Source: Escherichia coli
GTDB taxonomy: Bacteria > Pseudomonadota > Gammaproteobacteria > Enterobacterales > Enterobacteriaceae
Strand: one strand, 5' to 3'
Assembly (NCBI RefSeq): GCF_045037415.1
Contig: NZ_CP173438.1
Length of the DNA: 64,000 nucleotides
This document shows positions 13,996-14,762 of the stretch, one piece after another. Within the stretch, counting starts at the first letter, position 1; each line of letters starts with the position of its first letter. The notes beneath the pieces were generated by a model. It made no database searches. It was not told the DNA's origin and was given only the letters and a program-made list of their open reading frames with translations. The position numbers were made by a program, and so were the translations under genes.

Positions 13996-14671
13996 TCCAA
14001 AGACATATTAATGGGAGGATATAAAGGCCGACAGTAATAAACATTCGACGTAATATCCATAATTTAACAATTATTTTTTCTTTTTGTGTGGGGAGTCTAG
14101 TCGTAAGTCCAACTTGAGTTACCCTTGAAACTTTATCATCTATGTCACGATGATTCTCAACCTCATTGAGCAAATTAAAATATTTTTCTTTCTGTTCAAG
14201 AGTTAACTGTTGGCCGTTATTAATATCAAAATAGAGTCTCTGTAGTGCAATATAATTCCTTCTCATGGCTATTGCTCGACCACGATAATCTAGGTTAGAT
14301 ACGATCAGAGAAATACCCAGTAGAGCCACTGAAAGTATTGCCGCAACGATATCTGTATTATCTCCTAGAAATTTTGGAAATCGTAACGTTATAATTGAAA
14401 GTACCGCACTCAATATAGCATACCAAACGAGGATAAATTGAGAGTGTTTTTCAAGCCATTCTAGTCTATGGTGCGCTTGAATACGGGCTTTATATGTAAA
14501 CCAAATATTTTCATGCATAAAATATCCTTTTAAAAAGCGGAAGGGGCAGGATATATTGGAACCGTTGAACATCCTGCTCGGCAGGATCAGTGAGCATAAG
14601 CTCAACAGTAAAATATTACTGTTCATTATCAGAGCCGCCCTTGCATACGCAAGAGGAAAAAACTGCCCCAT
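13967..14671 (-). CDS. Small membrane protein with 2-3 predicted TM helices (candidate effector; SLATT-like architecture not verified)
   Basis: Hydrophobic segments FILVWYAILSAVLSIITL, IVAAILSVALLGISLIVS and MFITVGLYILPLICLWI around a charged helical region. Alternative start at ATG 14518 with AAGGA 7 nt upstream would give about 183 aa. Confidence 0.6.
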   Translation of the reverse strand: MGQFFPLAYARAALIMNSNILLLSLCSLILPSRMFNGSNISCPFRFLKGYFMHENIWFTYKARIQAHHRLEWLEKHSQFILVWYAILSAVLSIITLRFPKFLGDNTDIVAAILSVALLGISLIVSNLDYRGRAIAMRRNYIALQRLYFDINNGQQLTLEQKEKYFNLLNEVENHRDIDDKVSRVTQVGLTTRLPTQKEKIIVKLWILRRMFITVGLYILPLICLWIDYECKQSF

Positions 14672-14680
14672 CCTTTTGAA

Positions 14681-14709
14681 TTATTACAATTTAATGATCT
14701 TAAAGTCAA
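14681..14709 (-). promoter_or_regulatory. Putative sigma70 promoter for the membrane-protein/RT operon
   Basis: Minus strand reads TTGACT, 17-bp spacer, TAATAA, a few nt upstream of the ATG at 14671. Confidence 0.35.
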
Positions 14710-14762
14710 TACAAGTGAATTGTGTCCAGAGATGATGAACTAAATCACTCGTCAGCAAATTC

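Follow-up and report, generated by a model that had tools for sequence, protein, structure and literature searches.

The stretch upstream of the SLATT and reverse transcriptase (RT) genes of an Escherichia coli prophage is, we hold with high confidence, the promoter and gene of a DRT10 (UG17) noncoding RNA (ncRNA), the third component of a prophage-carried ncRNA-SLATT-RT antiphage system. We analyzed a 64,000-nucleotide window of contig NZ_CP173438.1 (assembly GCF_045037415.1), for which a preliminary description made from the letters alone had suggested a structured RNA next to an RT operon. The anatomy of the locus, the conservation of the RNA structure, the family membership, and the near-identity to the model system Eco3DRT10 were established in this analysis. 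The element itself is already known, the DRT10 ncRNA having been described experimentally in 2025-2026. UG17 is DRT10 and has been characterized in two preprints, Tang et al. 2025 (PMC12632851) and Sanchez-Nieto et al. 2026 (10.64898/2026.04.29.721553), according to which it requires an ncRNA upstream of SLATT. The features discussed below are collected in Table 1.

Table 1. Features of the DRT10 locus and its surroundings, in window coordinates
Feature	Coordinates	Strand	Basis or remark
Tail-fiber gene	7988-11014	+	Annotation of identical locus L001
300-aa macro-domain protein gene	11011-11913	+	Annotation of identical locus L001
Tail-fiber-assembly ORF	11916-12506	+	
UG17/DRT10 reverse transcriptase, 456 aa	12619-13989	-	PADLOC RT_UG17
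SLATT_5 effector gene, 183 aa, two predicted TM helices	13967-14518	-	PGAP coordinates
Shine-Dalgarno AAGGA of the SLATT gene	14525-14529	-	Sequence; 6-nt spacing to ATG 14518
U5 tract after basal stem	14536-14532	-	Sequence
DRT10 ncRNA, 137 nt (predicted ends)	14537-14673	-	RNA position n = window coordinate 14674-n
Basal stem SL1/P1, 3' strand (nt 125-135)	14539-14549	-	Fold and covariation
Predicted realignment segment A', CAAU (nt 116-119)	14555-14558	-	Identical to Eco3 A'
Predicted template A-B CAACGGUUC (nt 107-115)	14559-14567	-	Positional homolog of Eco3 template CAAUGAUUC
SL5 hairpin (nt 87-103), presumed 5' template-boundary element	14571-14587	-	Role from Eco3DRT10 mutagenesis (PMC12632851)
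SL4 hairpin (nt 71-82)	14592-14603	-	Fold and covariation
SL3 hairpin (nt 51-70)	14604-14623	-	Fold and covariation
SL2 hairpin (nt 19-36)	14638-14655	-	Fold and covariation; recovered by RNAalifold
Basal stem SL1/P1, 5' strand (nt 1-11)	14663-14673	-	Pairs with 14549-14539
Extended -10 TGtAATAAT	14680-14688	-	TG at 14688-14687; AATAAT at 14685-14680
-35 hexamer TTGACT	14704-14709	-	Consensus scan
IS5-like insertion point	~14762-14767		Element at L067 440-1634
DinI-like gene, frameshifted	~14763-14982	-	Just upstream of ncRNA promoter

Protein partners and relationship to Eco3DRT10

On the minus strand, the locus runs from a frameshifted DinI-like gene through a 244-nt intergenic region to the SLATT gene and then the RT gene, the last two overlapping by 23 nt. 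The RT matched the PADLOC RT_UG17 profile from end to end (E = 8e-159, profile positions 1-429 of 429), with Drt3a as the next best match (E = 1.6e-37), and it scored 527 bits on UG17 versus 64 bits on the Drt9 profile. Its YVDD motif (residues 222-225) and its last residue, S456, the putative priming serine, were invariant in 23 homologs. The protein encoded upstream matched PADLOC RTasSLATT (E = 2e-57) and NCBIfam SLATT_5 (132 bits; cutoff, 60).

In Eco3DRT10, RIP-seq revealed that the RT binds a 137-nt ncRNA encoded upstream of SLATT. Synthesis is primed from the RT's own C-terminal S456, and the 9-nt template CAAUGAUUC yields GAATCATTG tandem repeats, with the nascent cDNA realigning on a downstream CAAU (A-B-A') and the hairpin SL5 setting the 5' template boundary (PMC12632851). 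With purified RT, a synthetic form of this RNA templates cDNA in vitro, and miniprep-seq also supports the repeats (PMC12632851). Phage defense requiring all three components has been reported for Eco1-3DRT10 (PMC12632851) and for the E3659 system (10.64898/2026.04.29.721553); the two preprints give opposite accounts of whether infection raises or lowers cDNA (PMC12632851; 10.64898/2026.04.29.721553).

Judged by its sequence, the window locus is a natural allele of Eco3DRT10. The supplement of Tang et al. (PMC12632851) lists the Eco3DRT10 RT as OKX54664, a form with two extra N-terminal residues; the strings of the window RNA and RT do not occur in the searched portions of its tables, which are clustered at 60% identity. 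We made the connection through this accession: an exact protein look-up found OKX54664.1 to be identical to the 458-aa RT form encoded in locus L003, whose ncRNA carries CAAUGAUUC-CAAU, the template of GAATCATTG. The window RT is 95% identical to OKX54664 and the window SLATT is ∼90% identical, while the window and L003/Eco3 RNAs align without gaps and differ at 7 of 137 positions (nt 12, 22, 25, 27, 96, 110, and 112), two of them in the template. The two systems share the promoter-ncRNA-SLATT-RT order with overlapping SLATT and RT genes, the 137-nt length, the five-helix fold, SL5, the GUU spacer, an identical A' (CAAU), the C-terminal Ser456, and the dinI-like/tail-fiber moron position in a lambdoid prophage. 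They differ in the template, with CAAUGAUUC giving GAATCATTG in Eco3DRT10 and CAACGGUUC predicted to give GAACCGTTG in the window, and in the prophage and its integration site (yecD/aspS in the window and prfC/osmY for Eco3DRT10).

More distant likenesses place the RNA among related systems. The UG17-A system of Escherichia sp. E3659, compared here by its published description, is likewise a tripartite ncRNA-SLATT-RT system with a basal stem essential for RNA accumulation, a single-stranded template flanked by an ACU...ACU repeat, and tandem-repeat cDNA; it differs in its 143-nt RNA with six predicted stem-loops, its template ACUUAUU, and its 7-nt cDNA repeat, and SbcB and a phage SSB-like trigger have been reported for it (10.64898/2026.04.29.721553). 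DRT9 (UG28), according to Tang et al. (PMC12632851), closely resembles DRT10 in the overall architecture of its ncRNA and likewise copies a template loop by protein-primed synthesis; it differs in that its conserved poly-U template yields poly-dA and that it primes from a tyrosine. Tang et al. (PMC12632851) also argue for an analogy with telomerase RNA and TERT, namely, a short template, a 3' alignment segment, a structured 5' boundary, and processive repeat addition. DRT10 differs from telomerase in that a protein serine, not a chromosome end, provides the primer and in that it serves bacterial defense; the likeness is one of mechanism.

Promoter and start of the SLATT gene

The preliminary description had placed a near-consensus sigma-70 promoter upstream of the RNA, reading it as TTGACT and TAATAA 17 bp apart. 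The TTGACT and the site itself are real and conserved in position, but the second element had to be revised. TAATAA at the 17-nt spacing makes only 3 of 6 matches, and we dropped this reading for an 18-nt spacer followed by a TG-extended AATAAT, which fits better (10 of 12 consensus matches in the sigma-70 scan) and ends 7 nt before the predicted RNA 5' end, G14673. Promoter-like matches are common in the AT-rich DNA here (16 found versus 10.9 ± 3.1 expected), so the site alone is not significant. The call is supported because its position is conserved in homologs: a -10-like hexamer lay 6 to 8 nt ahead of the RNA in all homologs examined, the -35/-10 pair of Enterobacterales and Pseudomonas homologs ended 6 to 8 nt before the RNA 5' end despite sequence divergence, and enterobacterial homologs carried a TTGAC(T) or TTGAT(T) -35 element at the same distance as in the window.

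A different account of the stretch would be that it is coding, with translation from an ATG at 14671 adding 51 N-terminal residues to give a SLATT protein of 234 aa. Indeed, no stop codon interrupts the frame between 14671 and 14518 in the window, and the same is true of 5 of 33 homologs. As the preliminary description had observed, however, ATG 14671 has no usable Shine-Dalgarno sequence, AAAAGG directly abutting the codon, and it would sit at about +3 of the predicted transcript, whereas ATG 14518 is preceded by the good AAGGA ribosome binding site that the description had recognized. Homologs carry GGAG or AGGA 5 to 9 nt ahead of their SLATT start codons. The SLATT profiles begin to match at residues 51 to 53 of the 234-aa ORF, that is, at Met52, which is ATG 14518, and the RefSeq/PGAP gene call is the 183-aa SLATT form with the same start. 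In 28 of the 33 homologs, including E. coli alleles that are 95 to 97% identical, the frame upstream of the SLATT start is interrupted by in-frame stops within the RNA, and an RNA is therefore favored over a coding sequence. Rather than codon-level conservation with no RNA structure, the homologs show, alongside this broken frame, base-pair covariation, with substitutions paired across helices and not codon-wise. We consider a coding role extremely unlikely and conclude that ATG 14518 is the true start and that the 51-codon extension is a spurious product of mechanical ORF calling.

Fold and conservation of the ncRNA

The proposal of a structured 5' RNA of about 150 nt held for the structure and was amended in extent, from the whole of 14519-14670 to the 137 nt given in Table 1. 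We infer the RNA ends, nt 1 at G14673 and nt 137 at C14537 just before the U5 tract, from the published Eco3DRT10 numbering (A = 107-110, A' = 116-119, 137 nt; PMC12632851) put on the gap-free L003 alignment. The 137-nt core folds with -54.2 kcal/mol (z = -5.67) and the 162-nt stretch with -53.9 kcal/mol (z = -3.5); none of 200 shuffles was as stable in either case. Both the minimum free energy and the centroid structures consist of a basal stem closing four hairpins, SL2 to SL5, with a single-stranded template loop of ∼21 nt between SL5 and the basal stem. The inverted repeats that had drawn attention to the stretch are all present as described, ATCCTGC/GCAGGAT occurring twice and cttgc-atac-gcaag forming a hairpin; further repeats are GGAAGGGGCAG/CTGCCCCATCC (11 nt, 113 nt apart) and AACAGTAA/TTACTGTT.

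An alternative 7-bp helix can also form. The 3' arm of SL5, GCAGGAU (nt 97-103, 14571-14577), can pair with AUCCUGC (nt 122-128, 14546-14552), enclosing the template loop and competing with SL5 and 4 bp of P1. Its GGA/UCC core is invariant across homologs, and hence there is no covariation signal either way. This helix could be a conformational switch.

Conservation of the structure was examined with a covariance model, CM R1, for which four E. coli alleles and the centroid structure served as input. We searched 13 genome loci (Photorhabdus, Buttiauxella, Pseudomonas, and Stutzerimonas; RTs 58 to 69% identical), IMG/VR viral contigs, and 7 further loci obtained by exact protein look-up. A full-length match immediately upstream of SLATT was found in all 32 Eco3-like gammaproteobacterial loci searched, with E values of 1e-11 to 1e-42. 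In seven alphaproteobacterial UG17 loci (L018-L024; RTs 31 to 34% identical), CM R1 found no match, in line with the published remark that ncRNA models do not carry over from one subtype to another; these loci presumably carry a different ncRNA subtype. A SLATT-sized ORF lies upstream of the RT in six of the seven.

Covariation across 33 distinct sequences supported all five helices. Standard pairs made up 96.6% of cells, and 26 of 36 pairs were changed on both sides; none of 500 shuffles reached any of the measures, and slid registers were ∼50% paired. Compensatory changes occurred in 9 of 10 pairs of SL1/P1, 3 of 7 of SL2 (with an invariant U·G pair), 4 of 4 of SL4, and 3 of 7 of SL5 (with an invariant GAUCC...GGAU core), and 7 of 8 pairs of SL3 were changed on both sides. 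Because an alignment derived from the covariance model is fitted to it and leans toward the model structure, we repeated the analysis with a structure-blind MAFFT alignment and RNAalifold as a partial remedy; P1, SL2, SL3, and SL5 were recovered, with 15 compensatory pairs. In the window, CM R1 scored 176 bits on the minus strand versus 23 bits on the opposite strand. From these scores, together with the invariant or frequent G·U pairs, it follows that the minus strand is the RNA strand.

The preliminary description had likened the RNA to those of retron and DRT2-type systems. Its partnership with the adjacent RT stands, backed by the RT_UG17 match and the two preprints, but the proper analog is DRT10, with DRT9 the closest relative. 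We give next to no credence to a retron msr/msd identity of the RNA or to a role as a DRT2-type rolling-circle template: a structured RNA does adjoin the RT, and the RT does match retron_St85 and Drt2 profiles weakly, yet these matches reach only 62.9 bits (cutoff, 235) and 74.7 bits (NCBIfam Drt2; cutoff, 390), and UG17 is the full-length best match. Moreover, a permissive E-value search of positions 10 to 18 kb against Rfam 15 gave no match at the ncRNA locus at E ≤ 1, retron msr families included, the only family matched in that interval being IS009. The architecture, which combines a short template loop with four hairpins and a basal stem, is DRT10/DRT9-like and unlike an msr-msd with a1/a2 repeats.

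Template and predicted repeat product

With the RNA recognized as that of a DRT10 system, the Eco3DRT10 template positions can be read off in the window. They hold CAACGGUUC followed by CAAU, an A-B-A' pattern of CAA-CGGUUC-CAA with a period of 9. The window template differs from that of Eco3DRT10 by U110C and A112G, and because of this, A and A' are identical over CAA only (3 nt, compared with 4 in Eco3DRT10). Three nucleotides of A-A' homology suffice in Eco3DRT10, and a change at position 110 is tolerated (Tang et al., PMC12632851). By analogy, the predicted cDNA unit of the window allele is 5'-GAACCGTTG-3', a 9-nt tandem repeat.

The repeat is conserved at this place. When anchored at the Eco3 position, the A-position triplet recurred 9 to 11 nt downstream in 21 of 23 distinct template loops versus 8.6% of shuffled loops. 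Repeat length and period covaried by lineage, as CAAU with a period of 9 to 10, UCAA with a period of 10, and UCAAA with a period of 11. An unanchored census of any repeat of at least 3 nt was rejected as uninformative, 80% of shuffled loops passing it, and was replaced by the anchored test.

The window loop and the L002-type loop hold a second direct repeat, GUUC...GUUC, with a period of 8 (RNA nt 104-115; window 14559-14570). It overlaps the canonical CAA...CAA register with its period of 9; in the Eco3 allele, the corresponding repeat is limited to UUC...UUC. As the second repeat is a possible cryptic realignment register, the window allele could deviate from the prediction in its repeat unit or in how precisely the unit is made. 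If it were used, the product would be a period-8 repeat, (CGTTGAAC)n, or would have mixed junctions; by analogy, a 9-nt product is the more likely one, given the boundary at C107 in Eco3DRT10.

The template occurs in E. coli in at least two natural alleles, CAACGGUUC (window and L002) and CAAUGAUUC (Eco3, L003, L004, and L040). The last three loci carry CAATGATTCCAAT, the exact Eco3 template. The template allele does not track the RT/SLATT clade: L002 combines a window-type template with Eco3-like proteins, its RT being 98.9% identical to that of L003 and its SLATT having 3 to 5 differences from those of L003 and L004.

Proposed mechanism and relationship to the SLATT-RT transcript

We propose the following course, in which RT binding, protein priming, repeat synthesis, and defense rest on published work with the 95%-identical allele (PMC12632851). 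Transcription would start at about G14673 from the extended -10 promoter, and the 137-nt RNA would fold so that the basal stem closes a multiloop of SL2 to SL5 and the template loop is left single stranded. The UG17 RT would bind this RNA and prime DNA synthesis with the hydroxyl of its own C-terminal S456, copying CAACGGUUC from nt 115 to nt 107, where SL5 marks the boundary. The 3' end of the growing cDNA, ...GTTG, would then reanneal to the downstream CAAU, with a dG:rU wobble at the fourth position, and repetition of the cycle in a telomerase-like manner would yield long single-stranded tandem repeats, predicted to be (GAACCGTTG)n. Presumably, the SLATT membrane effector is under the control of this cDNA and thereby brings about abortive infection.

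The predicted RNA 3' end lies 18 nt ahead of the SLATT ATG (11 to 28 nt in homologs). This leaves no room for a separate promoter, making cotranscription likely, and the ncRNA transcript probably continues into SLATT-RT. The same proximity would suit an RNA that acts solely in cis, as a 5' leader (for instance, an attenuator, terminator, or riboswitch-like element) that tunes SLATT-RT and has no template role in trans, as would the promoter scan, which found no other promoter-like site between the RNA and the start, and the U5 tract that directly follows the GC-rich basal stem in E. coli. Against this, the near-identical Eco3 RNA is RT bound and templates cDNA in vitro (PMC12632851), a related DRT10 ncRNA works in trans (10.64898/2026.04.29.721553), a cis regulator leaves the conserved A-B-A' pattern unexplained, and the U tract is not conserved in all homologs. 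We regard a leader-only role as very unlikely; a leader role alongside templating is possible. An intrinsic terminator after the basal stem was considered and rejected, as the U5 present in E. coli is not conserved in Serratia/Klebsiella-type relatives; a terminator scan found none on the minus strand.

Genomic context and distribution

The prophage in the window is lambdoid and abuts yecD/aspS, with its tail-fiber and tail-fiber-assembly genes on the plus strand, opposite the cassette. Between these two lies the macro-domain gene, an unusual passenger in a tail-fiber module. The IS009 match in the Rfam search is full length (12265-12463, plus strand; 218 bits; gathering score, 117) and falls inside the tail-fiber-assembly ORF, so that an "sRNA" family here matches coding sequence.

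The DinI-like gene is intact in the prophage at the prfC/osmY site (L002-L004, 2232-2480). Two different prophages carry the dinI-like/ncRNA/SLATT/RT cassette at the same moron position, at the prophage end. In some genomes (H1 and H2), the CTAG of the DinI stop is the insertion site of an IS5-like element (ISEc68/ISKpn26); this point lies ∼55 nt ahead of the -35 element, and the promoter and ncRNA remain intact. In other genera, DRT10 cassettes occur in defense-island or mobile contexts (L060, 3589-5297; L063, 3555-5374; L065, 4606-5371), where their neighbors include PIN/PhdYeFM and SymE toxin genes, an nSTAND3 NTPase, an Mrr-like nuclease, and phage integrases and primases.

The ncRNA region is present in 187 of 5,426 complete E. 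coli genomes at 95.5 to 100% identity. RefSeq annotates no feature over it in any of the 40 matches listed from these 187 carrier genomes.

Implications

The window locus leaves the current understanding of the DRT10 system unchanged. A reading of raw sequence was enough to pick out the RNA component of a recently characterized telomerase-like antiphage system. The ncRNA is missing from Rfam 15 and, among the matches listed, from RefSeq annotation; an essential part of DRT10 systems therefore escapes annotation pipelines, and the SLATT gene acquires its spurious 51 codons from mechanical ORF calling.

The window allele, a natural variant at two template bases with GAACCGTTG as its predicted repeat, could be used to probe how far SLATT activation tolerates changes in cDNA sequence. 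The two template alleles and the second register might mean that SLATT senses cDNA in a sequence-independent manner or that template polymorphism is under selection, a suggestion that we put forward tentatively and consider rather unlikely. If it is correct, alleles that differ in their repeats or use a mixed register and yet both defend would indicate that SLATT senses cDNA independently of sequence, whereas alleles that differ in phage range would make template polymorphism a target of selection.
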